Shown here piece after piece: positions 19,842 to 43,227 of a stretch of DNA of 64,000 nt (position 1 is its first letter; the number at the start of each line of letters is the position of its first letter). Made by a program: the position numbers and the translations under genes. Source of the stretch: Syntrophaceae bacterium (GTDB lineage: Bacteria; Desulfobacterota; Desulfomonilia; UBA1062); the NCBI GenBank assembly GCA_039680665.1, contig JBDKSM010000143.1, positions 31,050 through 95,049 of the forward strand. The letters are read 5' to 3'. Below the pieces are notes generated by a model. The model did not search any database, was not told the origin of the DNA, and saw only the letters and a program-made list of their open reading frames with translations.

Positions 19842-20013
19842 AACCACGGGGAAAATGCTCATGGCTTAAAAGGATGCCCCCGTCAATGGGAGAACGCGTC
19901 GGGCTTAAGCCTGATCTTCCAGCACCGCCATGCTGGTATAGGTAATGAATCCGCTATCCGACCGCGTCCCACCCGTTGACGGTACGCATACACTACTTTT
20001 GGGAGGATACAAT

Positions 20014-21729
20014 ATGCTTGAGGAAAAAGGAACCGCTATTTTAGGCAATACCAGGGGACGCCGCATCGCTCCACATGGATCAGAAAGCGTGCATCCATCG
20101 CAATGGTACCCGGCCACACATCCAGGTCGTTCACAGGTGCCATACTTGCTGCGCCCCATATCCGTTTCACGCCTCATGAATGCAGAAATCCGCAAGATTT
20201 GGCGCTCCAGCGACTACCAGGGACATGACTTCAGCCCCTTCGACGTCTCGCTCATCCCCAACAAGTTTAGACTGGCCCGGGTGCTGGCCTGTGGCCTGAA
20301 GTCGAGCGTGGCCACCTATTCCCAGCATTGGCAGGGCATGTATTGCGACTGGACCTTCAATGCCCATGTCGCAAAAGCCTTATCCCTCTGCGGCTGCATG
20401 GCGGGCGGGGAACGGTTCGTCAAGAACGCCTTTGCCACGGTCATGCTCTTTAACACCGGGTATGGCGGGGTGTTCATGGATATGCTCAAGAATCGTCGCA
20501 GACGTCTGCCTCCCAGCATGGAAAGCCTTGAGAACCTGGACATGGGTACCTTTGAAAACAACCTGAGGAGCGCCATCGGTGCCGTACTGGGTGGCCAATA
20601 CGGGGTGAATATCATCCGGCGTTCGCTGTCAGAAAACTTGGTGGAGGGCGTGAATCAGAAAGGGTATCAGGCCTTGCACGAACTTGCCTTTGTAGAGGGC
20701 ATGGACCCTAAGGGCCGCATCACCTGTATCCTGCAGATCGGGCTCAAGCAGCCTCAGGATCAGACCTTTCTCGCGCCTGGGATCATGGACTTGGCCGGCG
20801 CCAAGATCATCGAGCGCAAGAGCGAACGCCGGGGCGCCGATTTCACCCGCGACGTACCCGTGGCGGTCATGTCACACTATTTCGCGGCCGTGAATCACGA
20901 ATTGAAAAAAACCGATCTGCACGATGCCATCCGGACTATTACGGTTGAAGGCGGCACACCCGGGGGCAATGTAAAACTCATGTCCATACGCAAGTATATC
21001 AATCAGGGTCTACGACAATGCTTTAACGATACCGTCGCCGCCTATAAAGCCAACGTGGATGATGGGACCACCACCCTGGATTTCGAAACCTACCGCGACA
21101 TCGCCCAATTTACGCGCGATCTCGGCCAGAAGGTTCTCAAACCACGCGAGGACGCCCACAAGATGCTCTTCATCTACATCGACCTTATGGCCCTCAAGGA
21201 ACGCGGCATTCCTATCGACATCGCCGAGCAGACCGCCGGTAACGCCATCCAGGCCGGACTCAACTCGGTACACCTGGAAGGCACTACGGATATCCCCGAA
21301 GGACAGGACCTCCTCTACGGTGCGTTCTGCATGACCGGCCCGATCCATTCGGCCGAACTCATGGATAACAATGCCCAACTAGAACGCGGATGGGGACAAG
21401 GTTTCTGGCATATCCTGGCGCCTGAACTGCCGCCGACCAATAAGATGCTTGCCGTGGTGGCCATCGCGGCCAAAAACGAGCAGGATGCCTTTATCGCCGA
21501 AATCCAGGCCATGGACGAACGCAAGTCAGTCAACGAGATTTTCTGGTACAAGACCTGGAATCACCCTCAAGGCAAACGCCTGGATGTCCCGCAATGGATC
21601 TCCTATGCCCACGTCCTGGAGGTCCTTCCGATTCCGGGGAATTCAATCGCCTTAATTGAGAAATCCCTGCCCGAGCACATGCCTGAGGAGCATCCCCTTT
21701 CGGAAGAATTCCGCCTGATGCTGGGATGA
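20014..21729 (+). CDS. hypothetical protein, 571 aa, no recognisable family
   Basis: ORF 19945..21729. Start placed at MLEEKGTAILG (ATG 20014), which has SD GGGAGGA 6 nt upstream. The long uninterrupted frame has ordinary amino-acid composition, and an intrinsic terminator follows. Confidence 0.6.
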   Translation: MLEEKGTAILGNTRGRRIAPHGSESVHPSQWYPATHPGRSQVPYLLRPISVSRLMNAEIRKIWRSSDYQGHDFSPFDVSLIPNKFRLARVLACGLKSSVATYSQHWQGMYCDWTFNAHVAKALSLCGCMAGGERFVKNAFATVMLFNTGYGGVFMDMLKNRRRRLPPSMESLENLDMGTFENNLRSAIGAVLGGQYGVNIIRRSLSENLVEGVNQKGYQALHELAFVEGMDPKGRITCILQIGLKQPQDQTFLAPGIMDLAGAKIIERKSERRGADFTRDVPVAVMSHYFAAVNHELKKTDLHDAIRTITVEGGTPGGNVKLMSIRKYINQGLRQCFNDTVAAYKANVDDGTTTLDFETYRDIAQFTRDLGQKVLKPREDAHKMLFIYIDLMALKERGIPIDIAEQTAGNAIQAGLNSVHLEGTTDIPEGQDLLYGAFCMTGPIHSAELMDNNAQLERGWGQGFWHILAPELPPTNKMLAVVAIAAKNEQDAFIAEIQAMDERKSVNEIFWYKTWNHPQGKRLDVPQWISYAHVLEVLPIPGNSIALIEKSLPEHMPEEHPLSEEFRLMLG

Positions 21730-22777: not shown

Positions 22778-23836
22778 TTACTCCTTCGGAATCCAAGAAA
22801 ACCACCGCATCGGTTCTTTGACGGCCTGCTTGAGCTTCGGATTTCTCCAGCAGTCGAAACGCGCCTTCACAATGGCAAGCCGGAGAAGCTGTTTATTGAA
22901 TGGCATGCGGTCCATCTTTTCTTTGCGGGCGAGCTTATTGGCAAAACCGCACGAGAATTTCTGGAAGTCTTGCTTGGCTTGCTCGGGATCGGTCACCGCC
23001 AGGCTGGCCACTTTGCCCGAGAGCAAGGCCCCTACGATGCCGTAGCCCCAGAAGGGCTCAATCATGCCGCTAAGCGTCCCGGCCAGAATCTTGTCGTTCC
23101 AGTAGAGCTTGGTTTCGCGGGGGAAGTATCCGAGGAAATTTCTCCAGCGCGGGAAATCCAGACCATAGCTGTCCTTAAGCACCTGTCTGAAACGTTCAAG
23201 ATCATGTTCATGAAGCGGCGTACGCGAGAAGAGCAAGGCGAACATCATGCCGTTGAGCGCGGCGGAGTAGCCATAGTCCACACTGAAGCGACCCATGTGA
23301 ATAGCCCCGTGCGAGCCGCCTTTATCCCAGGGAATCGTAGCGAGGTATCCATAGGTTGAACTGTATTTCACCCCAACGAGCTCGTAGACCTCCTTATAGA
23401 GTCCTGTGGCGATGATACTGCCGGCCGGAGCCGCTTGCAGCGCATCGGGGTCAAGCGCATGGCCGAAACGGAACTCGACGCCTGCCTCTTGGGCCAAAGC
23501 GAAGAGTCTGCGGTCGATCGAGGTTTCCCGCGGCCCCCGCTCCACATTGTAGGCCTTGGAATTGTGCACATAGGGCGGCAGCGTCAGGCGCTTGGAATCA
23601 TACCAGAACTCGGGATAGATATCGGTCGGAACGAAATACTCCGAGAGATCGATGCCGATATAGTCCCAGGTCTGCCGAGGCTGCAAGGGGGTGGTATGGA
23701 TGGAGGGATGGACATCAGGCGAGCCGCCGATAGCCGATTCACGGTCGTAAATTGTAACCTTGTGCCCCTGACGTGCCAAATCAATGCCCGCGACCATGCC
23801 GGCCAATCCGGCGCCGAAGATGGATACATGTTTCAT
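22778..23836 (-). CDS. FAD/NAD(P)-binding oxidoreductase, paralog 1 of an uncharacterised family
   Basis: Rossmann motif VSIFGAGLAGMVAGIDLARQGHKVTIYDR. Family motifs shared with 50215..51195 and 57431..58495 are GG.P..HPSIH.TP, ERGPRE.S, P.GSIIATGL and ILAGTLSG. The first ATG is at 23836; the ORF track's 23860 start is a TTG. Confidence 0.75.
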   Translation of the reverse strand: MKHVSIFGAGLAGMVAGIDLARQGHKVTIYDRESAIGGSPDVHPSIHTTPLQPRQTWDYIGIDLSEYFVPTDIYPEFWYDSKRLTLPPYVHNSKAYNVERGPRETSIDRRLFALAQEAGVEFRFGHALDPDALQAAPAGSIIATGLYKEVYELVGVKYSSTYGYLATIPWDKGGSHGAIHMGRFSVDYGYSAALNGMMFALLFSRTPLHEHDLERFRQVLKDSYGLDFPRWRNFLGYFPRETKLYWNDKILAGTLSGMIEPFWGYGIVGALLSGKVASLAVTDPEQAKQDFQKFSCGFANKLARKEKMDRMPFNKQLLRLAIVKARFDCWRNPKLKQAVKEPMRWFSWIPKE

Positions 23837-23935
23837 CAGTACATGGACCTCCTCTGCCAATATTCAGTTATCTCTCCACGAGACATTCAATGCCAAAAAC
23901 AAGCGATTCAATCCATGGCCGCCCAGGCAGCCCGA

Positions 23936-24583
23936 TCACGATCGCGATGCAACCTTCAATCCCTTGCTATCCGCCGGTGTCAGGCCCTTGATAATGACTT
24001 CCAGGATCTGATCCGTGGCATCCTTGATGGAGATCTCATTCAAGGCATTCCTTTGGGGACGAAAGACGTATTGCCTGATGGCCATCTCCACTGATCCATT
24101 GAGCATGTATGAGGCCATGATCGGGGTTATCTTCTTGCTGAACAAGCCCATTTCCTGGCCTTCCCGTACGATCTCGGCCGCACCCTCCAGCGAGAGCTCG
24201 TAGAGTTTCTGGTTCTCCTCATCATGAAATCTGTTCAGCATGGGGATGTCCATGATCATGACCTTCACCAGATCAGGGCTTTTCTGAAAATTATCAAAGA
24301 CATACTGTACCAAGCAACGCAGCTTATCGCGCGGATCGAAATAATCCCGGCTGATCTGTTCGATCTTCTTCAGATAGACCTGCGTGTTCTCCTGAAAGAT
24401 GGCGATCAGCAGATCATCCTTGCTGGGGAAGTACCGGTATATCAGGCCATACGCGATCCCGGCTTCCTCCGCAATATCAGCCACGCGGCATCCGGAATAC
24501 CCCTGCTGCGCAAAGACCTTAACGGCCGCCTTCAGTATTAAATTTCTCTTGGAAAGATTCAATTTCGGTTCCGCCATGGGCAT
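23936..24583 (-). CDS. TetR/AcrR-family transcriptional regulator
   Basis: LILKAAVKVFAQQGYSGCRVADIAEEAGIAYGLIYRYFPSKDDLL. Start at MPMAEPK (ATG complement 24581-24583) with SD AGGAG. Confidence 0.85.
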   Translation of the reverse strand: MPMAEPKLNLSKRNLILKAAVKVFAQQGYSGCRVADIAEEAGIAYGLIYRYFPSKDDLLIAIFQENTQVYLKKIEQISRDYFDPRDKLRCLVQYVFDNFQKSPDLVKVMIMDIPMLNRFHDEENQKLYELSLEGAAEIVREGQEMGLFSKKITPIMASYMLNGSVEMAIRQYVFRPQRNALNEISIKDATDQILEVIIKGLTPADSKGLKVASRS

Positions 24584-24761
24584 GCCTTCTCCTGCTTTTC
24601 CCGTCCTTTCACCATTAACGCGGCCTTTGCTTAAGGTCAAGACCCGATCACATTGAATCTATTCAACTTATGGAGCAGGCCAGGTACACCTTTTCCATGC
24701 CCGTCCACGCCGGTTGCCTGTACCGCCACGGTGATCGCAATATCCTCATTACATCCCCCGA

Positions 24762-25544
24762 TTATGCCGACGGCACCATCTCCCGGGCAATCAAGGCGGC
24801 GCCGATTGCCCCCACCATCTGCGGGTCCCAGCCGATCTTGTGGATCTTCACCCCCAGCGCTTCCTCAAGGGCGTTGAACATCCCCTCATTCTTCGCCACT
24901 CCGCCGGTCATGCCCACCTCCCCTTCCACGACGATCCCCTTGGCCAGGGCCGCCACCCGATGAGCCATGGCACGGTGCAGACCGCAAACAATATCCGGTA
25001 CGGGCTTGCCCGCGTTGATCAGCGACACGATCTCGGTTTCGGCAAATATCACGCACTGGTTCGAGACCTTGACCGGCGTTGTGGATTTCTGTGAGACCGA
25101 ACCCAGATCTTCCAGCCGCACGCCTAAAGGTTTGGCCATCACCTCTAGGAACCTGCCGGTACCAGCGGCGCACTTGTCGTTATAGGCATAGCGTATGACC
25201 TTCCCCTTTTCATCGAGCTTGATGGCCTTGGCGTCCTGGCCGCCGATATCGATGACCATGCGGATGGATGGTTCAAGCCACTGGGCCCCCCGGCCATGAC
25301 AGACGATCTCGGATTCAACGGCCTGGGCGAACGTGACCTGTTTCCTGCCATAACCGGTACCAACACAGCGCTCCACCTGATCCATGCGCATGCCTGCCTG
25401 GGCAAGGGCCTGCGCCATGACCTCGCGCGCCGATTCCTCGGGATCGGGTTTATCCCGCATGACGCAGGCAGCCAGGATGTTACTGTCCTCCATGATGACC
25501 GCCTTGGCGGTCCGCGATCCGATATCGCATCCGGCCACGATCAT
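24762..25544 (-). CDS. BcrAD/BadFG/HgdC-family ATPase (electron-activating subunit, copy 2)
   Basis: MIVAGCDIGSRTAKAV...DIGGQDAKAI...NDKCAAGTGRFLEVMA...SNQCVIFAETEIVS carries the ASKHA ATPase motifs and both Cys that ligate the bridging [4Fe-4S] cluster. ATGA overlap with the upstream ATPase gene (25541-25544). Confidence 0.85.
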   Translation of the reverse strand: MIVAGCDIGSRTAKAVIMEDSNILAACVMRDKPDPEESAREVMAQALAQAGMRMDQVERCVGTGYGRKQVTFAQAVESEIVCHGRGAQWLEPSIRMVIDIGGQDAKAIKLDEKGKVIRYAYNDKCAAGTGRFLEVMAKPLGVRLEDLGSVSQKSTTPVKVSNQCVIFAETEIVSLINAGKPVPDIVCGLHRAMAHRVAALAKGIVVEGEVGMTGGVAKNEGMFNALEEALGVKIHKIGWDPQMVGAIGAALIAREMVPSA

Positions 25545-26317
25545 AAACTCACCCCCCTGGCCAGCAGGGCCGCCCCGAGCGCGCCCACGATCTGGGGATC
25601 GACCGGCAAACGCCGCACGCGCATGCCGGTTATGGATTCCAATGACTTGACCACCCCCATGTTCTTGGCCACCCCGCCGGTCATGCACAGGTCGTTCTCG
25701 ATCCCGATGGTATTGATCAGCGTGGCCACGCGGCCGGCCATGGCATCATTGATGCCGGCGCAGATGTCAGGAAGCGGTGTGCGCTCACCCACCAGCCGGA
25801 TGATCTCGGCCTGGGCCCAGACCGTACAGGCGCTGGCAAGAACGGCCGGCTGTTTGGACTTCAGGGAAAGCTGGCCCAGATCCTCGAGCGTGATCCCCAT
25901 GAGATCGGCCATGACCTCCAGGAACCGGCCGGTGCCCGAGGCGCACTTGTCATTGGTGTAAAATTTGGCGATCTGGCCCTTGGCGTCGACCCGCATGGCC
26001 TTGCAGTCCTGGCCGCCGATATCGATGATGGTGCGCACCGCGGGCATGATCCAGTGGGCGCCTTTGGCATGGCAGACCAGTTCGGAAATGCACTGATCCG
26101 CAAACGGGATCTTTTCCCGGCCGTATCCCGTGCCCACGCAACGTTTAATATCCTGTTTGCCGATCTGTGACAACGCCAGCGCTTTGTGCAGCACCTCCTC
26201 AGCCGAGCGCGCGGGACTGGTATTGGCGTCGATCACGGCATAGCCCAGAATCCTGGTCTGGCCCAGCACGACCGCCTTGGCCGTTAGGGAACCGACATCG
26301 CATCCGGCCACGATCAT
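25541..26317 (-). CDS. BcrAD/BadFG/HgdC-family ATPase (electron-activating subunit, copy 1)
   Basis: MIVAGCDVGSLTAKAV...DIGGQDCKAM...NDKCASGTGRFLEVMA...ASACTVWAQAEII. ATGA overlap with the upstream gene (26314-26317). Confidence 0.85.
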   Translation of the reverse strand: MIVAGCDVGSLTAKAVVLGQTRILGYAVIDANTSPARSAEEVLHKALALSQIGKQDIKRCVGTGYGREKIPFADQCISELVCHAKGAHWIMPAVRTIIDIGGQDCKAMRVDAKGQIAKFYTNDKCASGTGRFLEVMADLMGITLEDLGQLSLKSKQPAVLASACTVWAQAEIIRLVGERTPLPDICAGINDAMAGRVATLINTIGIENDLCMTGGVAKNMGVVKSLESITGMRVRRLPVDPQIVGALGAALLARGVSL

Positions 26318-27717: not shown

Positions 27718-27963
27718 TTAGATACTCAGGCTCATGGAAGCCCCGCTCTTGAAGCGCTGTATATACAGCCGTGCCCGGTCCTTCAGAATGTCCATGGTGT
27801 TCTGTTTGGCAATATGGTTCAGGACCGGCAGGGCATGCTCGCGGAAAAGGGTCAGGGCATCGATGGCCCGCTGGCGTTCGGCCACCATACGCTCCTCATC
27901 CATGGCGATACTCAAAAGCGTCTCCATGGTTATCATCTGATGGTCCACACAATCTTGACACAT
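27718..27963 (-). CDS. small helical protein (81 aa) inserted between the two HGD-D-family subunit genes; unknown function
   Basis: MCQDCVDHQMITMETLLSIAMDEERMVAERQRAIDALTLFREHALPVLNHIAKQN.... ATG complement 27961-27963 with SD GGAGGTG. It fills the gap between 27987 and 27708 exactly. Confidence 0.5.
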   Translation of the reverse strand: MCQDCVDHQMITMETLLSIAMDEERMVAERQRAIDALTLFREHALPVLNHIAKQNTMDILKDRARLYIQRFKSGASMSLSI

Positions 27964-27986: not shown

Positions 27987-29120
27987 TTACTGGATCCGCT
28001 CCAGAAAGGCATCCACCCGCATGCGCACGCGGCCGTCCTCGACCAGGGGACCATACTCCCGTTCGATGCGTATGCACGGGATGCCCATGGCCTCCAGATC
28101 GCGTTCGAAAAGGCCGTTTTCCGAGCCGTGCATGTCGCAGAAACGGACATTCTGCAGGATGACCCCGTCCACCTTGGCCTTGAGCGCCTTTTCCTTGAGG
28201 CTCTGATAGCGGGGCTGATAGTAGGCGAACATGCGCGGGCAGAAGCTGCGGTTCAGGTAGCGTTCGGACAGGGCTTTAACCGGGTCACCCTCGGTGCTTA
28301 CCAGATCGTCGAAGAGCTTGGAGCCGAAGCAGAGCGTGTCAGCCACGACCACGGCGCCGGCCTCCTCGATGACCCGCACCAGATCGGTATCATCGGTCAC
28401 GCTGCCGCCTAAGAGCACGCGCTTGCCTTTCATCCCATTGGGCTTGGCCTGTTCCAGCTCTCCCAAGGTTTCCTCCAGCAGGGGTACGTATTCGCTCCAC
28501 GGCAGGGCCGTGGAGGCCAGGATGATGGTGGTGGCATCGGTCCCGGAGATAACAATCTCATCGCGCATGCGCAGCTTTTCCAGACGCTGCAATAGCCGCC
28601 GACCCGTATTGTAGAGCTCGATCTGCTCCCGTAAGCGCTCGTCCGTGATCTTGACACCGAAATGGTTCTCCAGACTCTCAATGAGCAGGCGATTTTCCTC
28701 CTCGAACCACTTCAGGCTGTACGGCTCAACCTTATGCGGCGTGCCATAGTAGTGGTAGTAGGCCGGCAGGATACCCGGAATATCTTCATTGGCCTTGCGC
28801 CAGCACTCCTCCAGACGCCGCATGGTGTCACAGCCGTTGGTGATGATGGCGCCGTCGAGAAAGCGGTATGTGCCTTCCCCGGCCAATTGCAACAGGCATT
28901 TGGGATAACTGCAGACCACGGGCCCGTAATAGCTGTCGCCGATGTCCGTGGTGGCTGCCTCGATCCCCCGCAAGCGGTAGGGCAGCAGACCGGCCGCGCC
29001 GATGATCTCGGAAGGCACGTAGGTGCACGAATACCCCACCACCTTTTTGCCGGCGGCCTTCCAGGCCTGTACCGAGCCGTTATTGAGCTGATTTGCCGCT
29101 TCGCTGAGCTCTTTTCTCAC
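27987..29120 (-). CDS. 2-hydroxyacyl-CoA dehydratase / benzoyl-CoA reductase C (BzdN/BcrC/HgdB-like) subunit
   Basis: 377 aa. The N-terminus WKAAGKKVVGYSCTYVPSEIIGAAGLLPYRL is typical of the HGD-D family. GTG start at 29120 is preceded by AGGAGGTG. Confidence 0.7.
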   Translation of the reverse strand: MRKELSEAANQLNNGSVQAWKAAGKKVVGYSCTYVPSEIIGAAGLLPYRLRGIEAATTDIGDSYYGPVVCSYPKCLLQLAGEGTYRFLDGAIITNGCDTMRRLEECWRKANEDIPGILPAYYHYYGTPHKVEPYSLKWFEEENRLLIESLENHFGVKITDERLREQIELYNTGRRLLQRLEKLRMRDEIVISGTDATTIILASTALPWSEYVPLLEETLGELEQAKPNGMKGKRVLLGGSVTDDTDLVRVIEEAGAVVVADTLCFGSKLFDDLVSTEGDPVKALSERYLNRSFCPRMFAYYQPRYQSLKEKALKAKVDGVILQNVRFCDMHGSENGLFERDLEAMGIPCIRIEREYGPLVEDGRVRMRVDAFLERIQ

Positions 29121-30603
29121 CTTTCACCTCCTGCTCCGAAAATAAGACACTGCGTAAGGCTACCAGGGCCTCACCGTGTTCCGGGGAAGCATTATCCGGG
29201 GCCAGCAAGGCGGCCACACCTTTGACCAGGTTTGGAACCACCGCATCGGTAATCGGTTTGAGGGCTGTTAATCCATCCTGGATGAGCCATTCCGAACAGT
29301 TTTTCAGCTCATCCAGGTCCAGGCAGGTGGCCACGGAGGCGCACAGATTCGTAAGACGCTCGGGGTCATGGGCATGGATGGCATTGGCCAAGCGCAATAC
29401 CGCGCTTAAACCATCGCCCAGTTCCTGGGTATCAAGCCCGGCCATGCCATCGGAAATGGCCTGGAGCACCTCGGCACGAGGCAGCTCTTCCAGTACGCCC
29501 ACCTTCTTGCGCCAGGTGCGTATGGCCGGGTTCTTGAGTTTGGCATAGGCGCCCAGGAGTTCGTACACGAACTCCGGATGATCGCCCAATACCACGGCTT
29601 GGGCCTGGGCCATGAATTCCTTTTCCTCGGCCATGGCCACCTGGGCCTTACGCTTCAGCACCGGATCCATGGCCGCGTAGGCTTCCAGCAGCACGCGCCG
29701 CATATCTCTAGTAGTGAGCGATTCGCCCCCTTCCATGTAGAAGACGCTGCCCATATGCAGCTGCCTGATCACCTCGTTGAGCGAGTTCATGATGGCGCCG
29801 ATGGGCGCGCCTTCGATATCGCGCATCAAGGCAAATAAGAGTTCCGTGAGCAGTTCGGGTGCAATGGGGTTGAGCGAACCCACTACTTCCTGCAAGGCCT
29901 TCACGGCAATGTTGATGGCCCTGACCGCGCTGGCGGCCAGCATCAGCACCTTGGAGGGATATTCCCATAAGATTTCAACGACCTTGGTGACCATGGCCAC
30001 GAGCGGACCTTCACTTGCATCGAGAAGATCCTTGATCTCCGCGAAATCACTGTTTTTGAAAAATGTCTCCAACGGGGTTTGAGCCAGGTCGACCAGCAAG
30101 CCGGGTTCTTTTTCAAGCATGGCGCTCAGCCCCTGCAAACTCGACGTGAACAGCTTGCCGAGCTGCGCGTGGTCGATACCATGCACCATAGCCTTGATGG
30201 CATTGGCCTTCTCTTGTGGTGATAGGGCTTGCATGGCATCCCCCATTCGCGTCAATGCGGCCAAGATGATGTTCACGACCTCCGGCACTGCGCCAAAGAT
30301 ATCGATTATGTTGTGCGGATCGGACCAAAAGACCTCAAGGGCATGACCGTTGTCGCGGGCCGATCGCGGATCGATGAACCCGTAGGCCGCCTTCAGGATG
30401 ACATGCTCGGTCAATTTCTTCTTGACCCGGCTCTGGCCCGACCAAGCATAGAACAGATCGGCGATAACATTTTTAACCACCTCCTTGCCGCCCTGGGTCC
30501 TGATCACGCCGGAGACGATCTTGCTCAAGAGCTCAGCGCCATTGCCGCCCTGCGTCACGCCGTGCTTGTGTTTGAACCATTCTTCCATATCGCTGCCGCT
30601 CAT
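29080..30603 (-). CDS. hypothetical all-helical protein (507 aa) with three copies of a W-x-[DE]...P..(N)..AL motif
   Basis: Start at MSGSDMEEWF (ATG complement 30601-30603) with SD GAGGAGG. ATGA overlap with the upstream gene, and a 41-nt overlap with the downstream BcrC-like gene. No family recognised. Confidence 0.6.
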   Translation of the reverse strand: MSGSDMEEWFKHKHGVTQGGNGAELLSKIVSGVIRTQGGKEVVKNVIADLFYAWSGQSRVKKKLTEHVILKAAYGFIDPRSARDNGHALEVFWSDPHNIIDIFGAVPEVVNIILAALTRMGDAMQALSPQEKANAIKAMVHGIDHAQLGKLFTSSLQGLSAMLEKEPGLLVDLAQTPLETFFKNSDFAEIKDLLDASEGPLVAMVTKVVEILWEYPSKVLMLAASAVRAINIAVKALQEVVGSLNPIAPELLTELLFALMRDIEGAPIGAIMNSLNEVIRQLHMGSVFYMEGGESLTTRDMRRVLLEAYAAMDPVLKRKAQVAMAEEKEFMAQAQAVVLGDHPEFVYELLGAYAKLKNPAIRTWRKKVGVLEELPRAEVLQAISDGMAGLDTQELGDGLSAVLRLANAIHAHDPERLTNLCASVATCLDLDELKNCSEWLIQDGLTALKPITDAVVPNLVKGVAALLAPDNASPEHGEALVALRSVLFSEQEVKGEKRAQRSGKSAQ

Positions 30604-31247
30604 AGCGTTTGCCTCCTCTTCTTCCACGTAGTGAAGCGTTCCCGAACACGGCCGGCCAGCATCTGCGCCGCCCAAGAGAAGAGCTTCGGCCGCTGATCAA
30701 GCACGGCATTGAGGATGGTACCGGTCATCCGGGAAAGTTCATGGGCATCGATATTGGCCATAATACCTTTCGCCAAGGCGGATATCTGGGTGGGATCCTG
30801 GCTGTGGAGGTCATTGACGTTGCGAGCCACCACAGTAATCGCTTTGCCGACGGCTTTGGGCGTGTCCGTACCCGAGGCCCGGATCAGACCCTGGGTGAGC
30901 CGTATGGCAGCCGACCCCGCTTTGTGCAAGGGTTCGGTATCCAGGTCCTCCCTCAGGGCCTGAATAACGGCCAACAACATTGGGGGTGGAAATTTCTCCT
31001 CAGCCTGAATGATCACCTCGCTCAAGGCCCCGATGAGGTAATTGATGATGGCCGGCAGGCCATCGACCAGGGCAAGGGCGACGCCCACATCCTCCCAGAG
31101 GAGCGTGCGCACGAGCTCGGCACCGTTCTTGGGGTTGATGTTAACCAGAGAATTCCAAAGCATCTCTTTGATAAACGGGGTATCAAGGATCTCCTTGAGA
31201 ACACTGCCCGTATACGCGGATGGGATGGTTCCATCGATGCCGTTCAT
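30600..31247 (-). CDS. hypothetical helical protein (215 aa), paralog of 31244..31681
   Basis: Start at MNGIDGTIP (ATG complement 31245-31247) with SD AGGAGG and ATGA overlaps on both sides. It shares LVRTLLWEDVGVAL and FPP..L motifs with the 145-aa neighbour. The Arg/Gly-rich N-terminal 94 aa of the ORF-track version is rejected. Confidence 0.6.
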   Translation of the reverse strand: MNGIDGTIPSAYTGSVLKEILDTPFIKEMLWNSLVNINPKNGAELVRTLLWEDVGVALALVDGLPAIINYLIGALSEVIIQAEEKFPPPMLLAVIQALREDLDTEPLHKAGSAAIRLTQGLIRASGTDTPKAVGKAITVVARNVNDLHSQDPTQISALAKGIMANIDAHELSRMTGTILNAVLDQRPKLFSWAAQMLAGRVRERFTTWKKRRQTL

Positions 31248-31681
31248 ACCCCACCTCCTTCGTCGGACAGGGTCTGAACGCCCGCGTCGGGTGCGTTTTG
31301 GGAAAAGAGCGGTGCAATTTCGGCCAGGATGCGGGATAATCCCGTTGTGACATTCCCCACCGCCACCAAATCTATGTCGGCCAAGATGATCCTGACCACC
31401 TCGCGTAAAAACTCCGGTGGAAAATGGTCGTTGATCTGCGTTACCGTTTCTTCGGCCGCCTTGATGCAGGCATTGGCCACCTTTGGGATGGCATCCGCGA
31501 CTGACAGTGCCACCCCCACATCCTCCCAAATCAAGGTACGCACGAGATCCGGGACGGAACCCGGATCGATGTGATTCAGAAGTGTAGCCAGATTGGCCTT
31601 GAACCCCGGCTTATTGAGCAGGGCCTTGGCGATGCGGTTGCCCAGCTCGAAGATCCCTTTAGTTTTTGCGTTTTCATCCAT
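31244..31681 (-). CDS. hypothetical helical protein (145 aa)
   Basis: MDENAKTKGIFELGNRIAKALLNKPGF...LVRTLIWEDVGVALSVADAIPKVANACIKA. SD GAGGTG lies 6 nt upstream, 13 nt after the ACAD stop. Confidence 0.6.
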   Translation of the reverse strand: MDENAKTKGIFELGNRIAKALLNKPGFKANLATLLNHIDPGSVPDLVRTLIWEDVGVALSVADAIPKVANACIKAAEETVTQINDHFPPEFLREVVRIILADIDLVAVGNVTTGLSRILAEIAPLFSQNAPDAGVQTLSDEGGGV

Positions 31682-31694
31682 GACGCACCTCGCT

Positions 31695-32951
31695 TCACAG
31701 GGTCTTGCAATCGTAGAAATAGCGGGCGCCTTCCATGAGGGCCAGCTGTTTCCCGCCCAGCCAGAGCTGCACCATTTTCATGTCGCGCCAGTGCTTTTCG
31801 ATATCCCACTGCCTGTCCGCGCCGTATTCCTGCAGGATATTCATGGCCCGGCCGGCGTCCTGATAGGTGCGGTCGGCTACAAACATCTTGGTGAGCCGGG
31901 CCTTGGCCACGTTCTGATGGGACCAGCGCGGCCCATACAGGTCGGGCCGATCGAGCACGGCCGCCAGGCCGTACACGGCGCTGCGGCAGGCCTCGATGCC
32001 GCCCGCGATCTCCGCCAGTTCGGCGGCCACGGCCTCGTGTTCATTGAGCGGACGGCCGTGCAGGGTTTTCCGGGCGCAGAAATCACAGAGCTTTTCATAG
32101 ATATCCAGCAAAGGGCCAACGTTGAAAATGGCGGTCAGCATGCCTAAGCACATGACTTCCTTGTAGCGCAGGGCATCCTTGCCCGGCCCCAGTGCCCGGT
32201 AATAGGCCGGCACGCGCACGTCTTCGTACCAGACGTCGCTGTTCTTGTCCGAGGCCACACCGGCCTTTTCATACGGTTTGCCCTGGGTCACGCCGGGCAG
32301 ATCGTCGGGCACGAAGATAAAGGCGATGTCGTCGTCGTTCGAGGAGCCGGGATTGGTGGTGCAGACCACGCCGTGAACATTGGCCACTCCGCCGGAGTTC
32401 GAGGGCCAGAGCTTATGCCCGTTGATTACCCATTCGTCGCCGTCGAGTCTGGCCGTGGTCCGGATGGTACTGCCGTGGATCAGGTCCACGTTCTCGATAT
32501 CCGACCCACCCTGCGGCTCGGTCATGAACAGGCCCCCGAAAAAGAGTTTGTCCTTGGACTGGGCCAGGGGCGCCAGGTCGGCCAGGAGTCTCATATTGTA
32601 TTCAGGCTTCATGGCGATCATGAGCAGCGACCAGTAGCCCGAGGCAAAGGCGATGTTCATGCCCAGGTCGCCGCGCGACATCTCCTCGAAGACCACGGTA
32701 CAGAACGATGCGATGTTGGAGACATTGCCCGCGCCCCACCCGCCCAGCTCCGGCGGCATGAAGGCCTTCTGCCAGCCGATATCGATCATGAGCACCTTGA
32801 GGGCCTCGTCGAAGATCGCATGCGAGTCCCAGTGTTCGTCAAATTCGCGGCGGCGCGGACGCACATAGGTATCCACCCAGTTGCGCATCATGGTGCGCAG
32901 CGTGGAAGCCGGCATGGTGCGGTAGGTCGAGAAATTATACGATTTTTTCAT
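31695..32951 (-). CDS. acyl-CoA dehydrogenase-family protein (418 aa), non-canonical active-site motif
   Basis: ACAD fold motifs (FMTEPQGGSD, INGHKLWPSNSG, EKHWRDMKM). At the position of the canonical I-Y-E-G-T it reads LWLGG. SD AGGAGG; ATGA overlap with the upstream ACAD. Confidence 0.85.
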   Translation of the reverse strand: MKKSYNFSTYRTMPASTLRTMMRNWVDTYVRPRRREFDEHWDSHAIFDEALKVLMIDIGWQKAFMPPELGGWGAGNVSNIASFCTVVFEEMSRGDLGMNIAFASGYWSLLMIAMKPEYNMRLLADLAPLAQSKDKLFFGGLFMTEPQGGSDIENVDLIHGSTIRTTARLDGDEWVINGHKLWPSNSGGVANVHGVVCTTNPGSSNDDDIAFIFVPDDLPGVTQGKPYEKAGVASDKNSDVWYEDVRVPAYYRALGPGKDALRYKEVMCLGMLTAIFNVGPLLDIYEKLCDFCARKTLHGRPLNEHEAVAAELAEIAGGIEACRSAVYGLAAVLDRPDLYGPRWSHQNVAKARLTKMFVADRTYQDAGRAMNILQEYGADRQWDIEKHWRDMKMVQLWLGGKQLALMEGARYFYDCKTL

Positions 32952-34201
32952 GCGTTACCTCCTGATCCGAAAAAGGCCCGGGCGATATCCATCTGCGCGG
33001 GAATGCCGCCCCCCAGATAGGCCTGCATGGTTTTGATATCGCGCCAGTGCTTTTCAAGGTTCCACTCCTTGGAATACCCGGCCGAGGCCATCAGCTCCAT
33101 GCCCCGGTCCATGCCGTGCCAGCACTCGGCAATGGCCTTGAGCGAGGCGGACTGGGCCAGTACGAAACAATCCTCCACGTTCCTGATCCCGAAGACCTCG
33201 GGCTGCGCCATGGCGCGCGCCAGGGAATGCACCAGGAGCCGGGAATTCATGATCGACATGGCCAGGTTTGCCAAAACAGCGGCGCACATGGGGTTGTCGC
33301 GAAAGGGCATGCCGCCCTTGATGACCCGGTTATCGGCCCAGTTTTTCAGGATGACGTAGGCGTCCATGGCCGAACCTACGGCCACGGCCCCGCACAAGAG
33401 GTCGATCCAGGTGATGAAGCGCTTGTAGGTCGCCAGGTTGATGGGGATGCCGTATTGGAGCGGCACTTCCACAGTATCGAAATCGACCGAACAATTTCTG
33501 CTCGCCAGCAGGCCCGTGGTCTTGAGCGGCGCCGAGGCCTTTTTAACCCCCTGGGCGTCCGCGGGCACCAGCACCAGCACGATCTCATTTTGCGCGGCGG
33601 CGATCACGGCATACATATGCGCGTCAAAACCGGAATTCATGGGTCGCGCCTGTCTGGCCCGCACGACCCAGGTGTCGCCCCTGCGTTCTGCCGTGGCTTG
33701 GGCCTCCTTGCCGCTGATCATGGCCCGGGCCGCTTGTCCTGCATCTCCGAGACCGGGCAGGATGATCGATACCAGCTTCATATCCCCGGCATAGAAGGCG
33801 GAGAATACCGCGCGCTTTATCTCTTCCGTCACATGCGGCCCGATAATGCCTTCCGTGAGGAAACAGGCCAGGGCCATCTTCATGGCCGACACATAGGCGA
33901 TTCCCGGATCAGCCCGGCCCATCTCTTCATAGCCGCGCACCAAGGTGGTGGCGACCGTGGGGGCCAGCAGACCCGACCCGCCGGATTCGACCGACCATAC
34001 CATTTCATCGAGGCCCAATTCGCGCGAAAGAATATCCAGGGCCTTCATCTGATGCGCATATACCTCTCTGAACTCCAGGCGTTTGGTGATCAGCTCCTGA
34101 TTGGCCCAGCGCGCCACCGTCTGGGCCATGGAATGGGATTCTTCCGTCTCCCATTCTTTGGGATAGGGGAAATAATCCATAGCGGGGCTTAAGCTTACCA
34201 T
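32948..34201 (-). CDS. acyl-CoA dehydrogenase-family protein (417 aa), non-canonical; probable partner of 31695..32951
   Basis: ACAD-like C-terminus MELMASAGYSKEWNLEKHWRDIKTMQAYLGGG, with AYLGG replacing IYEGT. Start at MVSLSPAMDY (ATG complement 34199-34201) with SD AAGGAGGTGG; the ORF-track start at 34228 is a TTG. Confidence 0.8.
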   Translation of the reverse strand: MVSLSPAMDYFPYPKEWETEESHSMAQTVARWANQELITKRLEFREVYAHQMKALDILSRELGLDEMVWSVESGGSGLLAPTVATTLVRGYEEMGRADPGIAYVSAMKMALACFLTEGIIGPHVTEEIKRAVFSAFYAGDMKLVSIILPGLGDAGQAARAMISGKEAQATAERRGDTWVVRARQARPMNSGFDAHMYAVIAAAQNEIVLVLVPADAQGVKKASAPLKTTGLLASRNCSVDFDTVEVPLQYGIPINLATYKRFITWIDLLCGAVAVGSAMDAYVILKNWADNRVIKGGMPFRDNPMCAAVLANLAMSIMNSRLLVHSLARAMAQPEVFGIRNVEDCFVLAQSASLKAIAECWHGMDRGMELMASAGYSKEWNLEKHWRDIKTMQAYLGGGIPAQMDIARAFFGSGGNA

Positions 34202-34437: not shown

Positions 34438-35139
34438 TTATTGCCGTGCATCCGCCGTCAGGTGTGTGGTTACAATGTTCCGAGCGCTCCGATACGGCTC
34501 TTTCCCGACCATCTTGCGCACATTCTTGATGGTATCGACGGCCAAGCTCTTCGTCAGCAGCTGCAGGACGGGCGTTGGAAGCGAGCCTCCGACATCGGCC
34601 AGGATCTGATAGGTCACCTCGGTTTTACCTTCGGCAATGGGCTTCATGATGCAGCAGACCTCGACCAGGGGCAATCGCATCCCTCCCCTCTCCTGGGCGG
34701 GAACAGCTGCGTCCTGGATGCCTTTTCCCCTCAGAGTCAATGTTCCGGTTGTTCTATCCAGGCTGAGTTCGTGTTTCATGATCGCATAGCGGTCGGAAAC
34801 CGGCCAGGGCAGCCCTTGCCTGAAGTAGCTGTAATAGCTGTCCGCGGAACTTGCCTTTTCGGGCGACTCGATCTTATACGCCTTGGAGCACATGAACATC
34901 CACTGCTTCTCAGCCGGGATATCGCGCACTACCGCTTCCAGCACCGCTACCGGTGCATCAACCACTCCGATCGCCTTGGTTTCGTTGACCGGGCTGCGCG
35001 GATTGCTGCGGGCATACCCCATGATGCCGTCACAGGAGCGGATTTGCCTCCATTCGCCGCACGCCTCCTGTCCAAAACCGGCCGAAGACAACAGAAAAAG
35101 TGTCACTGCCACAGCTGCCAAACCGAGCCCTTTCTTCAT
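34438..35139 (-). CDS. exported START/SRPBCC-like lipid-binding protein (tentative)
   Basis: Signal peptide MKKGLGLAAVAVTLFLLSSAGFG. The mature ~210 aa has START-like length and features (..QWMFMC...YYSYFRQGLPWPVSDRYAIM..). SD GGGAGGTG. The fold call is by eye only. Confidence 0.45.
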   Translation of the reverse strand: MKKGLGLAAVAVTLFLLSSAGFGQEACGEWRQIRSCDGIMGYARSNPRSPVNETKAIGVVDAPVAVLEAVVRDIPAEKQWMFMCSKAYKIESPEKASSADSYYSYFRQGLPWPVSDRYAIMKHELSLDRTTGTLTLRGKGIQDAAVPAQERGGMRLPLVEVCCIMKPIAEGKTEVTYQILADVGGSLPTPVLQLLTKSLAVDTIKNVRKMVGKEPYRSARNIVTTHLTADARQ

Positions 35140-35154: not shown

Positions 35155-36414
35155 TCAAACAATTTCAATTGCACCGAAAACACCTTTATCTTTGAGTTCG
35201 CCGATCTCGTCCACCCTCAATCCAATCTCGGTCAGCACCGCAAGCGTATCCTGGCCGATACGGCACCCGATGCGTTTGTAGACAGGCGCATAGCCGGAAA
35301 ACTTGATCGGACAGGCGAGCTGTTCATAGGATTTGCCGTTCAGGCCCGGGACTTTCACGAGGAGTTCACGCGCGGCGGCGTGTTCGCTCCGGATAGCCTC
35401 GGCAAAGGTCAGCACCGGTTCAAAGCAGGCGTCCTTTTCCTTGAACAAAGCCACCCAATGCGCCAGCGGCTTGGTTCTGATGACCTCGGCCACCTGGCGC
35501 TTGGCCTCTTCAACCCGGCCGGGCTGCAGGACGCTCCCCGCGATGAGGTCCTCGAGCCCGATGGCCGTACAGAAGACCGTGAAGAATTGATGCTCAAGGC
35601 CGCCGAAAGAGATGTATCTCCCATCCGCGGTCTCATAGAAACCATAGAGCGACCCCCCATTGAGCACCTCGTTCTCATAGGTGCTTGGTGCATCGCCGCA
35701 TAATTCCTTTATGGCGGCGGCGGCATGAAAGGGGAACAGCCCATCGGTCATGGAAATATCGATATGCTGGCCCAAACCGGTGGCATGGCGATGAATGACG
35801 GCCGCCAGGATGCCGATTACGGTGTTGTTGGTGCCGGAACCGATATCGGCCAGCTGGGTGCCGAGCAGGGCCGGACCGGTGTCCTTGCGGCCGGAATAGC
35901 TCATGAGACCGGAAAGGGCCAGGTAATTGACATCATGGCCGGCTTTGTCCTTTAATGGCCCGCTCTGGCCGTAGCCGGTCAGGGAACAGTAGATCAAGCC
36001 CGGATTGATGGCACAAAGGCGCTCGAACGAAAGCCCCAAGCGCTCCATGACCCCGGGCCGGAACTGTTCCACCACGATATCGTAGGCCTTGATCATACGC
36101 TCGATAAGGGACACGCTCTCAGTTTTTTTCAGGTCCAGAGAGAGCGAACGTTTATTGCGGTTGAGGTAGGCATGCAGGCATGATATCGGGCCGTCATCCT
36201 CAACATAAGGGGGCGCCAGGCGCGCCAGATCAGGCCTGGTAGGGGATTCAATCCGCACCACATCGGCGCCCAGATCGGCCAGCATCAAAGTGGCCAGAGG
36301 TCCGGGCAGGAGCGTGGTGAAGTCCAGGACCTTGAGTCCGGACAGCAACGATCGTCCGAGATCCTTTGTATCTGCTGTTGATTTTCCCACGATGCCCCCT
36401 TTTCGATCACTCAA
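35155..36414 (-). CDS. family III CoA-transferase (CaiB/BaiF/BbsF-type)
   Basis: LSGLKVLDFTTLLPGPLATLMLADLGADVVRIE...RNKRSL.LDLK...GVMERLG are family III signatures. 36414 is a TTG; an alternative GTG at 36390 has SD AAGGGGG. Confidence 0.9.
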   Translation of the reverse strand: MSDRKGGIVGKSTADTKDLGRSLLSGLKVLDFTTLLPGPLATLMLADLGADVVRIESPTRPDLARLAPPYVEDDGPISCLHAYLNRNKRSLSLDLKKTESVSLIERMIKAYDIVVEQFRPGVMERLGLSFERLCAINPGLIYCSLTGYGQSGPLKDKAGHDVNYLALSGLMSYSGRKDTGPALLGTQLADIGSGTNNTVIGILAAVIHRHATGLGQHIDISMTDGLFPFHAAAAIKELCGDAPSTYENEVLNGGSLYGFYETADGRYISFGGLEHQFFTVFCTAIGLEDLIAGSVLQPGRVEEAKRQVAEVIRTKPLAHWVALFKEKDACFEPVLTFAEAIRSEHAAARELLVKVPGLNGKSYEQLACPIKFSGYAPVYKRIGCRIGQDTLAVLTEIGLRVDEIGELKDKGVFGAIEIV

Positions 36415-36642: not shown

Positions 36643-38508
36643 TTAGGCTGCAAAACTCTCTTGAGCGATCTCCGCTATGGAGAGGTCTTCGCTCTTGATG
36701 GCCTTGGCTGCGGCTTCCACCTCGGGCAGCACGTTCTTGATGAAATATTGCGCCCCGGAGAGTTTACCGGCATAATAGGCCGCATCCTGATTTTCCTTGA
36801 TAAAGCCCTTCCAGGCCTCCTGATCCTGCCTGCTTGCTCCTTTGGCTTGCGCCAAGGCGTCCAGCTGAGTGTGCGCGATGCCGGCCTGCCAAAGCAGGAG
36901 CCAGGCCGAAACCACCTTGCCCATCAGCATCAGGAACGGATAGGCCTGTGAGATAGGGATCAAAAATTTGCCTTCCTTGCCGCACTGGCCGAAGAAGAGC
37001 ACCAGATCGGTCAAGGTGTTCATGCTGCCCTGAAAATCCTCAGTCAAGTCCTTCAATACAGGGATGTCCTTGGTCTTGGAAATCATGGCCTGCATCTCGC
37101 CGATCAGCGTCATGAAATAGGCGCCTTTCTTCATCCCGAGCTTGCGGCCAATGAGATCCAGGGCCTGGATGCCGTTGGCGCCTTCGTAAATGGAGGCGAT
37201 CTTCACGTCGCGCAGGTACTGCTCGATGGGGTATTCGGCGCAAAAACCATAGCCTCCGTGCACCTGCATGGCGTTCTCGACCACCCGGAAGGCAATATCC
37301 GATCCATAGGCCTTGATGATCGGGGTGAGCACCTCCAGAAGCCCCTGCCATTTGTCCTTGCCGGCTTCATCTTGAGCGACATGCGCCTTATCGATGCAGT
37401 ACCCGATGAAGTAGGCCATGGCCCGCAGGCTCTCGACATTGGTCTTCATCCACAAGAGCATGCGGCGCACGTCCAGATGCTCGATGATCGGCACGCGCGG
37501 GGCATCGGCGTTCTTGAACTCCAGAATGGCGGCACCCTGCTGGCGCTCCTTGGCGTACTTGAGGGCATGCAGATAGGCGATGGAAGCGGCCGCCAGGCTC
37601 TGCAAACCGACCCCCAGCCTTGCCTCGTTCATCATCTGGAACATGACCTTCATGCCGTCGCGCTCCTGTCCAAGGAGTTCGCCGTAGCAATCACCGTTGT
37701 CGCCGAAATTCATCACGCAGGTGGCGCTGGCATGCAAGCCCATTTTCTCTTCGATCTTGGCGATCTCGTAATCATTGCGCCGGCCCAGGCTGCCGTCGGC
37801 GTTCACGATGTACTTGGGCACGAGAAAAATGGAAATGCCCTTGGTGCCGGCCGGGTCCCCTTCGATGCGGGCCAGCACCGGGTGGATGATGTTCTCGGTC
37901 AGGTCCTGGTCAGCCGAGGAGATGAACTGCTTGGTACCCTGGATACGATAGGTACCGTCCGGCAGGCGAAAGGCCTTGGTGGACAGATTGCCTACATCGC
38001 TGCCGGCATTGGGTTCCGTCAGACACATGGTGCCGCCCCACTCTCCGCTCACCATCTTGGGAAGGTATTTTTGCTTTTGCTCTTCGGTGCCGTACACCTC
38101 GATCAGGTGGGCGGCACCTTCCGCCAGTCCCGGGTTCACGACGAAGGCGAAGTTGTGCAAAAACCATTCATGCGCCGCCCCGCGGACAACGGCGGGAAGG
38201 CCCTGACCGCCGATCTCGGTCGGGAATCCCATGGCGTTCCAGCCGCCCTGACAGTAAAGCTTGTAAGGTCGCTGATAACACTTCGGCAAATACACCTGTC
38301 CATCGACCAGCCGGCAGCCCTCACGGTCGGCCTCGGCCATGATGGGGTACAGCTCCTCGCTTGCGAGCTTTTCGGCCTCGGTAAGGATCATGTCAAAGGT
38401 TCCCTTCGAAAAATCCACATATGGCATTTCCGTGCAGAGCTCTTCCACGTTCAGCATTTCATGCAGGATAAATCGCTGATCCCTTGCATCCACGATAAGA
38501 CTTGCCAT
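36643..38508 (-). CDS. large acyl-CoA dehydrogenase with N- and C-terminal extension domains (FadE5/DmdC-like architecture)
   Basis: The N-terminus LIVDARDQRFILHEML resembles the AcylCoA_DH_N domain. Core motifs LTEPNAGSD and the canonical ASIYEGANGIQ are present, followed by a ~150-aa C-terminal helical extension. Start at MASLIV (ATG complement 38506-38508) with SD AAGGAGGTG. Confidence 0.85.
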   Translation of the reverse strand: MASLIVDARDQRFILHEMLNVEELCTEMPYVDFSKGTFDMILTEAEKLASEELYPIMAEADREGCRLVDGQVYLPKCYQRPYKLYCQGGWNAMGFPTEIGGQGLPAVVRGAAHEWFLHNFAFVVNPGLAEGAAHLIEVYGTEEQKQKYLPKMVSGEWGGTMCLTEPNAGSDVGNLSTKAFRLPDGTYRIQGTKQFISSADQDLTENIIHPVLARIEGDPAGTKGISIFLVPKYIVNADGSLGRRNDYEIAKIEEKMGLHASATCVMNFGDNGDCYGELLGQERDGMKVMFQMMNEARLGVGLQSLAAASIAYLHALKYAKERQQGAAILEFKNADAPRVPIIEHLDVRRMLLWMKTNVESLRAMAYFIGYCIDKAHVAQDEAGKDKWQGLLEVLTPIIKAYGSDIAFRVVENAMQVHGGYGFCAEYPIEQYLRDVKIASIYEGANGIQALDLIGRKLGMKKGAYFMTLIGEMQAMISKTKDIPVLKDLTEDFQGSMNTLTDLVLFFGQCGKEGKFLIPISQAYPFLMLMGKVVSAWLLLWQAGIAHTQLDALAQAKGASRQDQEAWKGFIKENQDAAYYAGKLSGAQYFIKNVLPEVEAAAKAIKSEDLSIAEIAQESFAA

Positions 38509-38714
38509 GTACACCTCCTTACTACACATCAATTAGATTGACTACTCAATCATTATGATAATCTCGTCCGTGACCCCTGTCAAGCTTCAGTTGTTCTTTT
38601 TATTTCATAGGCAGACCATTTATTGATTATATCTATCTATTATTATTGTATTATTAATTATCTGATATTATACAGCCACGCCATTCATTATTTTATCGCG
38701 TTCTCTAATTGTGA

Positions 38715-39959: not shown

Positions 39960-40077
39960 AGGCGCAGGCGTCGCGCCCTCGGTCCCAGAGCCACAGGGCG
40001 CGCTGAATTGAACAAGCAGGCAAGACGCTCGGAAAGACAACGGGCTTAAAGTACATTACGAAAAAGGAGGTATTCAT

Positions 40078-42762: not shown

Positions 42763-42766
42763 AGGT

Positions 42767-43216
42767 ATGGCGGACATGAGCAAGATCGGCAAGGAGTACC
42801 CGGCCGTCATCTGGGAGGTGGAGCGGGGTAAGATCCGCGAGATGGCTACGGCCATCGGCGATAGCAACCTGATCTTCAGAGATAAGGCAGCGGCGGTCAA
42901 GGAAGGGTATAAGGACACCCCCATCACCCCGACCTATCTGACCGTGCCGGCCATGGGTGGCGGCAACATGCTCACCCTCGTGGGCGATCTGGGCATCAAC
43001 TTCGCCATGGTGTTGCACGGCGAGGAGGAATACGAGTTCTTGGGCGATATCTATCCCGGCGATGTGATCACCGGAAAATGTCGCATCGTGAATATCGAGG
43101 AAAAAACAACCAAGAAAGGTTCGAAAATGGACCTCGTCACCACCGAAGTCCTGTACAAGAACCAGCGCGGCGAAGACGTAGCCAGGGCCCGAACGGTCAT
43201 CGTCGAGCGCAAGTAG
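42767..43216 (+). CDS. MaoC-N/FAS1-like dehydratase half (hot-dog, non-catalytic-type subunit)
   Basis: WEVERGKIREMATAIGDSNLIF matches the ErGkIReFA.AiGD.NP signature of MaoC_dehydrat_N-type proteins. Confidence 0.75.
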   Translation: MADMSKIGKEYPAVIWEVERGKIREMATAIGDSNLIFRDKAAAVKEGYKDTPITPTYLTVPAMGGGNMLTLVGDLGINFAMVLHGEEEYEFLGDIYPGDVITGKCRIVNIEEKTTKKGSKMDLVTTEVLYKNQRGEDVARARTVIVERK

Positions 43217-43227
43217 GGAGGTGGAAG

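Follow-up and report, generated by a model that had tools for sequence, protein, structure and literature searches.

Three paralogous proteins predicted to be helical-repeat arrays are encoded in conserved operons with an acyl-CoA dehydrogenase-like pair and a benzoyl-CoA reductase-type enzyme

Introduction

A 64,000-nucleotide stretch of DNA from a Syntrophaceae bacterium (GenBank assembly GCA_039680665.1, contig JBDKSM010000143.1, positions 31,050 to 95,049 of the forward strand), here called the window, contains three adjacent genes whose products we call A, B and C. They lie between a pair of acyl-CoA dehydrogenase (ACAD)-like genes and the genes of an enzyme of the benzoyl-CoA reductase (BCR) and 2-hydroxyacyl-CoA dehydratase (HAD) type. 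The question raised by this locus is what these three proteins are and what they do beside two such enzymes. Among the reductions and dehydrations of anaerobic metabolism, some of the most difficult are catalyzed by enzymes of the BCR/HAD type, and we know of none with a helical-repeat subunit like A, B or C, or with an ACAD-like pair as an obligatory part of its operon. An initial annotation of this DNA, made from the sequence alone, described the three proteins as coupled, related to each other and of no recognizable family, and proposed that they form an accessory module of the enzymes on either side. Here we present a computational analysis of the three proteins, their relatives and their gene neighborhoods.

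Genes A, B and C and their products

The three open reading frames (ORFs) are all present on the minus strand with the sizes first given for them, 145, 215 and 507 amino acids (aa), and sit within one long operon (Table 1). Each starts with ATG and is preceded by a strong Shine-Dalgarno (SD) site, GAGGTG for A, AGGAGG for B and GAGGAGG for C. Both the A/B and B/C junctions are ATGA start/stop overlaps, and the end of C overlaps the GTG start (29120) of the downstream HGD-D gene by 41 nucleotides. Such tight packing or overlap of genes is also common at other loci. The neighbors are those that had been named: two ACAD-like genes lie upstream, and two genes with PF06050 and two with PF01869 domains lie downstream.

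Searches of Pfam-A and NCBIfam gave zero matches at E <= 0.01 for A, B or C, and no ETF (electron-transferring flavoprotein), ferredoxin or flavodoxin domain was matched by Pfam in any of them. A Pfam scan of 51 B-type and 47 C-type relatives yielded only scattered, mutually inconsistent sub-threshold matches, with no significant match to a HEAT, ARM or TPR repeat. Against PDB sequences, the top matches of a B profile were designed helical bundles (E = 3e-4 and 4e-3), an effect of composition, and the top match of a C profile was haemoglobin (E = 0.016); neither profile found a significant chain of natural origin. The surrounding enzymes are of known families; judged by these searches, A, B and C make up an unannotated protein family, and none of the profile searches gave a credible match to a characterized one. 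In the searchable literature we found no description of the proteins or of their gene arrangement, and searches for a described ACAD and BCR/HAD cluster with unknown partners returned nothing relevant.

The three proteins are related to each other beyond chance, as had been proposed. In BLASTP comparisons A matched B with E = 2e-20 (40% identity over 88 residues), and the similarity to C was weak but repeated (1e-6 for A, 4e-5 for B). With deep family profiles, A and B matched at E = 1e-41. All five instances of the motif on which the initial annotation had based the relationship occur in the translations; in A the signature residues are W52-E-D...P66...N70. The A profile matched C four times (residues 6-179, 151-282, 294-426 and 417-496), and C compared with itself showed shifts of about 135 and 260 aa. 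B likewise aligned with itself when displaced by about 65 aa, which reveals an internal repeat, and residues 76-282 of C are collinear with the fused A+B proteins described below. From these profile matches and shifts we conclude that A, B and C are predicted arrays of one helical module, present in about one copy in A, 1.5-2 in B and four in C. AlphaFold2 models of a fused A+B relative (pLDDT 44, 40 alignment rows) and of C (pLDDT 35, 6 rows) were all-helical by DSSP, in keeping with tandem helical units, at the low confidence that goes with such shallow alignments. A Foldseek search of PDB with the low-confidence A+B model gave nothing at E <= 0.001 and only TM-scores below 0.25, and was disregarded.

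A, B and C contain one, zero and three cysteines, respectively. These are unclustered, no Cys/His cluster occurs in any of the three, in agreement with the initial annotation, and no Cys is found among the alignment columns that are invariant or nearly so in the family. Conserved acidic and amide residues occur in the motifs W-E-D, P...N, D-I-D, N-x-D-x-x-E and N-A-V-L-D-Q. A terpene-synthase metal site was considered for the conserved D/N/E motifs and rejected by inspection, since neither their spacing nor their context matches.

In each protein hydrophobicity peaks at the signature motif, where the 19-residue Kyte-Doolittle maximum is 1.5-2.0. Summed over the motif, the Hessa scale gives +5 to +7 kcal/mol. 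This positive score stems from the conserved Asp, Pro and Asn inside the motif, which would sooner form two buried helices than cross a membrane. The earlier statement that the proteins have no transmembrane segment is thus probably right, with the caveat of this hydrophobic motif and its Hessa value of about +5 kcal/mol. B-type proteins end in a tail rich in W and F, and over its last 25 residues the family median of the net charge is +7. By contrast, the remainder of B is acidic, and C strongly so.

Distribution and gene neighborhood of the family

A first pass of word-indexed searches returned only close orthologs, six for C and 14 for B. Contigs L001, L004 and L005/L006 have a gene order identical to that of the window, and A orthologs are present in L001, L004 and L005. 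A distant relative of 360 aa (P0019) aligned collinearly with A and then B and is therefore a gene fusion. A profile search recovered about 25 such fused A+B proteins, with about 30% identity to the window proteins, on contigs that read ACADα-ACADβ-AB-TetR-468 aa-HGD-HGD-BcrAD-BcrAD. The 468-aa protein of one of these contigs (L009) is a homolog of C, in the same position and with 29% identity (E = 6e-68).

We searched the A+B profile exhaustively with HMMER against 1.84 billion cluster representatives (clusters at 50% identity) and found 411 clusters at E <= 1e-3, 258 of them at E <= 1e-10. The family is thus large and not a local oddity. Homolog lengths group near 140, 210-250, 360-390 and 460-600 aa, and most of the family carries the signature W-[EQ]-D-x11-P-x3-N, which matched no Pfam or NCBIfam model in the searches above. 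A scan of GTDB with an overly specific query derived from C found one metagenome-assembled genome, labeled Deltaproteobacteria.

The frames are maintained, as is evident from the ratios of nonsynonymous to synonymous substitution (dN/dS, Nei-Gojobori) among the window, L001, L004 and L005. These were 0.14-0.19 for A, 0.24-0.32 for B and 0.15-0.23 for C, and 0.06-0.10 for ACADβ and 0.07-0.13 for the first HGD-D gene. Constraint on A, B and C is thus looser than on the enzymes, which is typical of structural partners. Purifying selection had been named in advance as support for the module and a dN/dS near 1, or missing homologs or synteny, as a reason to abandon it; selection is purifying, homologs abound and synteny is conserved.

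Using a degenerate DNA pattern for the signature motif, we collected at least 120 metagenomic stretches for a census of gene neighborhoods; the counts that follow are among the matches listed. Module ORFs were confirmed by HMM at 108 loci with a GC content of 38-70%. At 78 loci some gene precedes the first module gene, and at 74 of these its immediate upstream neighbor is ACAD-like. Long module proteins (400 aa or more) have a PF06050 (HGD-D) gene as the next gene downstream in 44 of 46 evaluable cases, and two PF06050 genes are followed by PF01869 in 19 of 24 evaluable cases. Homologous sets beside HgdAB/BzdNOPQ-like genes thus recur in many anaerobic metagenomes, which had been the expectation if the module is real.

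The unit is not always intact. At two loci (L025 and L083) the order is C-HGD-HGD-ACAD-ACAD-A-B, and ACADαβ-A-B occurs with no BCR-like genes nearby in, for example, L052, L056, L057, L090, L106 and the contig of P0039. The unit therefore splits into two blocks, [ACADαβ-A-B] and [C-HGDαβ]. A and B are linked most tightly to the ACAD-like pair, and the link to the HGD-D pair is confined to C. The proposal that all three proteins are tied to both the BCR-like enzyme and the ACADs stands in that both enzymes are linked to the family, but it has to be divided along these lines.

Single loci show further arrangements. In L057 (698-14385) and L019, ACADα-ACADβ-A-B lies directly downstream of murC-murB-ftsQ-ftsA-ftsZ; in L057 the unit is then followed by a PAS/LuxR regulator, and the locus has no BCR-like genes. 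In L080 (2-7610), ACADβ-A-B is followed by an AMP-binding ligase instead of C and the BCR-like genes and, further on, by a 686-aa protein of the tungsten-type aldehyde:ferredoxin oxidoreductase family, a 4Fe-4S protein and an SDR; in this single case a class II-like system may have taken the place of the ATP-driven enzyme. A TetR gene is present in many loci, either upstream of the cluster or between the B- and C-type genes. The latter position is seen in L009, L010, L022, L027, L059 and L114, which belong to the fused or a closely related A+B clade; in the lineage of the window the TetR gene stands at the cluster end instead (23936-24640). In other lineages three additions come after the ATPase pair: a gene for a protein of some 243 aa with a CdhC (acetyl-CoA synthase β) domain, one for a CooC/MinD-type ATPase of roughly 255 aa, and another pair of PF06050 genes. 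Loci with these extras are L010 (17253-21098), L009, L026, L040, L059, L094, L095, L103, L111, L115 and L119; none of the three is found in the window cluster.

The neighboring enzymes

Neither of the ACAD-like subunits has the Y-E-G with the catalytic glutamate near the C-terminus that marks canonical ACADs. HMMER alignments to five solved ACADs placed W-L-G opposite this motif in ACADβ, and ACADα has Y-L-G. Of 79 relatives encoded next to module genes, 70 have W-[ML]-G where canonical enzymes have Y-E-G. ACADβ retains the flavin-binding motifs TEP..G.D and K.W.TN. ACADα is degenerate; it has neither motif and its TEP..GSD flavin/substrate loop is missing. The nearest solved ACADs are distant, at E = 1e-23 and 1e-10 for the two subunits. 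A partly conserved Glu near residue 265, in a position like that in isovaleryl-CoA dehydrogenase, could serve as an alternative base, so that dehydrogenase activity could be retained.

Downstream of C, the window has two PF06050 and two PF01869 genes in one operon, as is expected of a class I benzoyl-CoA reductase, and the same arrangement occurs in L001, L005, L009 and L010. At the level of equivalogs the proteins are not BcrABCD or BzdNOPQ, as all NCBIfam scores are below the curated cut-offs: 139 bits against 454 for BzdN, 180 against 350 for double-cubane reductase, 25 against 449 for BzdO, and 211 and 192 against 380 for BzdQ. The product of the first HGD-D gene matched double-cubane reductase, HadC, BzdN and BcrC, each far under its cut-off, and the PF06050 and PF01869 proteins also fall below the HadBC equivalog cut-offs. 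Since the scores are so far below every equivalog cut-off, the four-gene enzyme is assigned by similarity to a separate clade of the BCR/HAD family. We also considered the thn operon for anaerobic naphthalene degradation and rejected it. In that operon the CoA-transferase is of family I and the ACADs are homotetramers, and the genes published for it include none between an ACAD pair and the reductase (PMC11659651, PMC6849830).

Other genes in the window

The remaining genes of the operon are listed in Table 1. The 81-aa gene between the two PF06050 genes has no Pfam match; it is found at the same place in L001, L004 and L005 and has sequence relatives in several census loci.

Table 1. Genes of the minus-strand operon that contains A, B and C, in order of transcription. 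Positions are those of the window.
Gene product	Position	Strand	Remarks
629-aa ACAD	36643-38532	-	First gene in transcription order
Family III CoA-transferase	35155-36414	-	Upstream of A, same operon
START-domain protein	34438-35139	-	Upstream of A, same operon
ACAD-like α, 417 aa from ATG at 34201	32948-34201	-	Weak Pfam ACAD matches; start refined by SD site and ortholog length
ACAD-like β, 418 aa	31695-32951	-	Flavin-binding motifs kept; W-L-G in place of Y-E-G
Protein A, 145 aa	31244-31681	-	ORF, SD and ATG confirmed; predicted single helical-module copy, acidic tail
Protein B, 215 aa	30600-31247	-	Predicted module, extension and polybasic C-terminal tail
Protein C, 507 aa	29080-30603	-	About four predicted tandem copies of the A-type module
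BCR/HAD catalytic subunit 1, 377 aa	27987-29120	-	PF06050, Pfam E = 9.7e-86
81-aa helical protein	27718-27963	-	Starts MCQDC; between PF06050 genes
BCR/HAD catalytic subunit 2, 464 aa	26314-27708	-	PF06050, Pfam E = 2.6e-33
BcrAD/HgdC-type ATPase 1, 258 aa from ATG at 26317	25541-26317	-	PF01869, TIGR00241; start refined by SD site and orthologs
BcrAD/HgdC-type ATPase 2, 260 aa from ATG at 25544	24762-25544	-	PF01869, TIGR00241; start refined by SD site and orthologs
TetR-family regulator	23936-24640	-	YsiA-type C-terminal domain; cluster end
FAD/NAD-binding protein	22778-23860	-	Last listed operon gene

The rest of the window contains genes for a MaoC hydratase, an SDR, a thiolase with an SCP-x/DUF35-type protein, and four acyl-CoA ligases. 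Together these are a set typical of the beta-oxidation of bulky substrates. From 38808 onward an ACAD, an SCP-x/DUF35-type protein and a thiolase are encoded on the opposite strand, and the four AMP-binding CoA ligases are at 44701-46470, 48265-50181, 52759-54516 and 54621-56294. Further genes to 58495 include those for the MaoC hydratase, the SDR, an MFS transporter, a ferredoxin-domain protein and FAD-binding proteins. The region 38808-58495 thus resembles an island of catabolic genes for bulky organic acids. Next to a tRNA gene (60140-60224) lie an AbiEii-type toxin gene (58686-59549) and a 199-aa ORF that overlaps it; the region 58686-60224 may be a small mobile or defense insertion at this tRNA. 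On the other side of the cluster, a 594-aa plus-strand ORF (19945-21729) has no Pfam match, nor does the 571-aa gene at the corresponding position in L005. A minus-strand gene at 7878-11129 encodes a 1083-aa protein with many PKD/Ig-like repeats, probably a surface protein, and adjoins the amtB/glnD nitrogen-regulation region (12020-16137).

Discussion

A, B and C are real, conserved, paralogous, co-translated proteins that are positionally locked to two enzymes. Their fusion, synteny, coupling and repeat architecture, together with the lack of catalytic or cofactor motifs, lead us to favor, tentatively, the reading that they are non-catalytic helical-repeat partner subunits of the ACAD-like and BCR/HAD-type enzymes. 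A and B, which are a single polypeptide in some lineages, would be the dedicated partner of the ACAD-like αβ flavoprotein. C, a diverged and expanded array of the same module, would serve the αβ catalytic dimer of the BCR/HAD-type enzyme in the same exclusive way. At loci that have both blocks, the paralogous modules may touch and so keep the two enzymes joined, and the polybasic tail of B could contribute to docking through contact with C, which is strongly acidic. This could allow a CoA-thioester intermediate that is reactive or poorly soluble to move between the two active sites. We infer such binding, docking and channeling from sequence and gene order. For class I reductases of the BZD type, no more than a transient association of the ATPase dimer with the catalytic dimer has been predicted (PMC11971306), so that there would be a task for a tethering subunit.

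Several points weigh against this reading. Both AlphaFold2 models are of low confidence, with shallow alignments behind them, and the fold search was empty. Adjacency in an operon proves co-expression, not binding. The loci with only ACADαβ-A-B mean that A and B have a role independent of C and the BCR-like enzyme, so that docking cannot be their sole function. Finally, a site for a ligand or a metal would explain the conserved acidic and amide residues just as well.

A bolder version, which we consider somewhat unlikely, is that A/B and C join a base-less ACAD-fold flavoprotein to an ATP-driven radical enzyme in an as yet unrecognized multi-enzyme machine that is widespread in anoxic sediments. 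Such a machine would carry out a coupled CoA-thioester transformation not known from either family alone, for example an internally redox-balanced or channeled conversion of a ring or chain.

It is also conceivable, and in our judgment unlikely, that the proteins are carriers or solubilizers, that is, helical bundles that hand a bulky lipid-like or alicyclic acyl-CoA to both enzymes, possibly at the membrane through the polybasic, aromatic-rich tail of B. The very hydrophobic helix pair of the signature motif and the charge and the W and F residues of that tail are consistent with such a role, as is the START lipid-binding protein encoded in the operon of this lineage amid genes for bulky-substrate beta-oxidation. 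The order of the CoA-transferase and START genes is repeated in L004 and L005, but in the wider census neither gene is conserved across the family among the matches listed. Faint sub-threshold matches to apolipophorin and apolipoprotein point in the same direction, but at E >= 0.025 they are at chance level for helical sequence rich in Ala, Leu and Glu. Moreover, a generic carrier would need no separate paralogs locked to each enzyme.

Quite unlikely, in our estimate, is a role as assembly or maturation chaperones that are absent from the mature enzymes, with A and B guiding assembly of the ACAD-like αβ protein and C guiding assembly or Fe-S loading of the HGD-D αβ dimer. The pairing of one set with each heteromeric enzyme and the faster evolution of A, B and C relative to the enzymes would fit. 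Since a CooC/MinD-type maturation ATPase and a CdhC-like protein join the cluster in other lineages, maturation factors do travel with it, and ACAD9, which appeared in the list of PDB matches, is a precedent for an ACAD fold in an assembly complex. Against this, the start/stop overlaps and strong SD sites suggest near-equimolar synthesis, which is unusual for a catalytic chaperone, about 870 codons would be a large investment, and no ATPase or cluster-binding motif is seen in A, B or C.

The initial annotation had offered scaffold, substrate-delivery and electron-transfer roles for the module. The accessory module as such is supported, and within it a scaffold would be the role we infer. Very improbable, and the least likely of the three roles, is that A, B and C are electron adaptors that replace ETF or ferredoxin between the flavin of the ACAD-like protein and the Fe-S clusters of the BCR-like enzyme. 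In its favor, scans of window ORFs and of recurrent neighbor families turned up no ETF, and ACADβ, with its flavin motifs kept and its canonical glutamate lost, could be a redox module. Against it, the three proteins have no conserved Cys/His cluster and no recognizable flavin, haem or other cofactor motif, and B lacks cysteine altogether. An ACAD flavin and a BcrAD-type cluster also lie far apart in potential, and A and B accompany the ACAD-like pair even at loci without BCR-like genes close by.

Whichever role applies, the family comprises at least 411 clusters at 50% identity and is locked to a glutamate-less ACAD-like pair and a separate BCR/HAD clade. A conversion of CoA thioesters that is unstudied and yet common in anoxic sediments, peat, digesters and sites affected by hydrocarbons is therefore likely. 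As a marker for the system in metagenomes, the signature W-[EQ]-D-x11-P-x3-N can be used, and the operon genes from ACADα through the second ATPase are a defined biochemical target.

Among known systems, A, B and C can be compared with helical-repeat scaffolds such as HEAT/ARM/TPR solenoids and talin-type bundles. With these they share an all-helical prediction, tandem repeats of about 65 and 130 residues, the lack of catalytic motifs and a likely protein-binding role; they differ in that profile searches linked them significantly to none of these Pfam families or PDB chains. The ACADs of steroid catabolism (ChsE/FadE pairs) are heteromeric α2β2 proteins, and we know of no A/B-type partners for them. 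Like these pairs, the ACAD-like proteins of the window are encoded by two adjacent coupled genes, with flavin motifs in one subunit and a degenerate second subunit. Unlike them, the flavin-binding subunit has W-[ML]-G in place of the catalytic Y-E-G, and both subunits are only distantly related to solved ACADs. Class I reductases have been described as four-subunit enzymes with a two-dimer architecture, with no mention of accessory subunits (PMC11971306). As far as we know, the window cluster differs from the described BCR/HAD radical enzymes, class I BCRs and 2-hydroxyacyl-CoA dehydratases with their activators, in adding the predicted helical-repeat proteins and an ACAD-like pair, and it has no ferredoxin gene; its two catalytic and two ATPase subunits match the two-dimer architecture of class I BCRs (PMC11971306).

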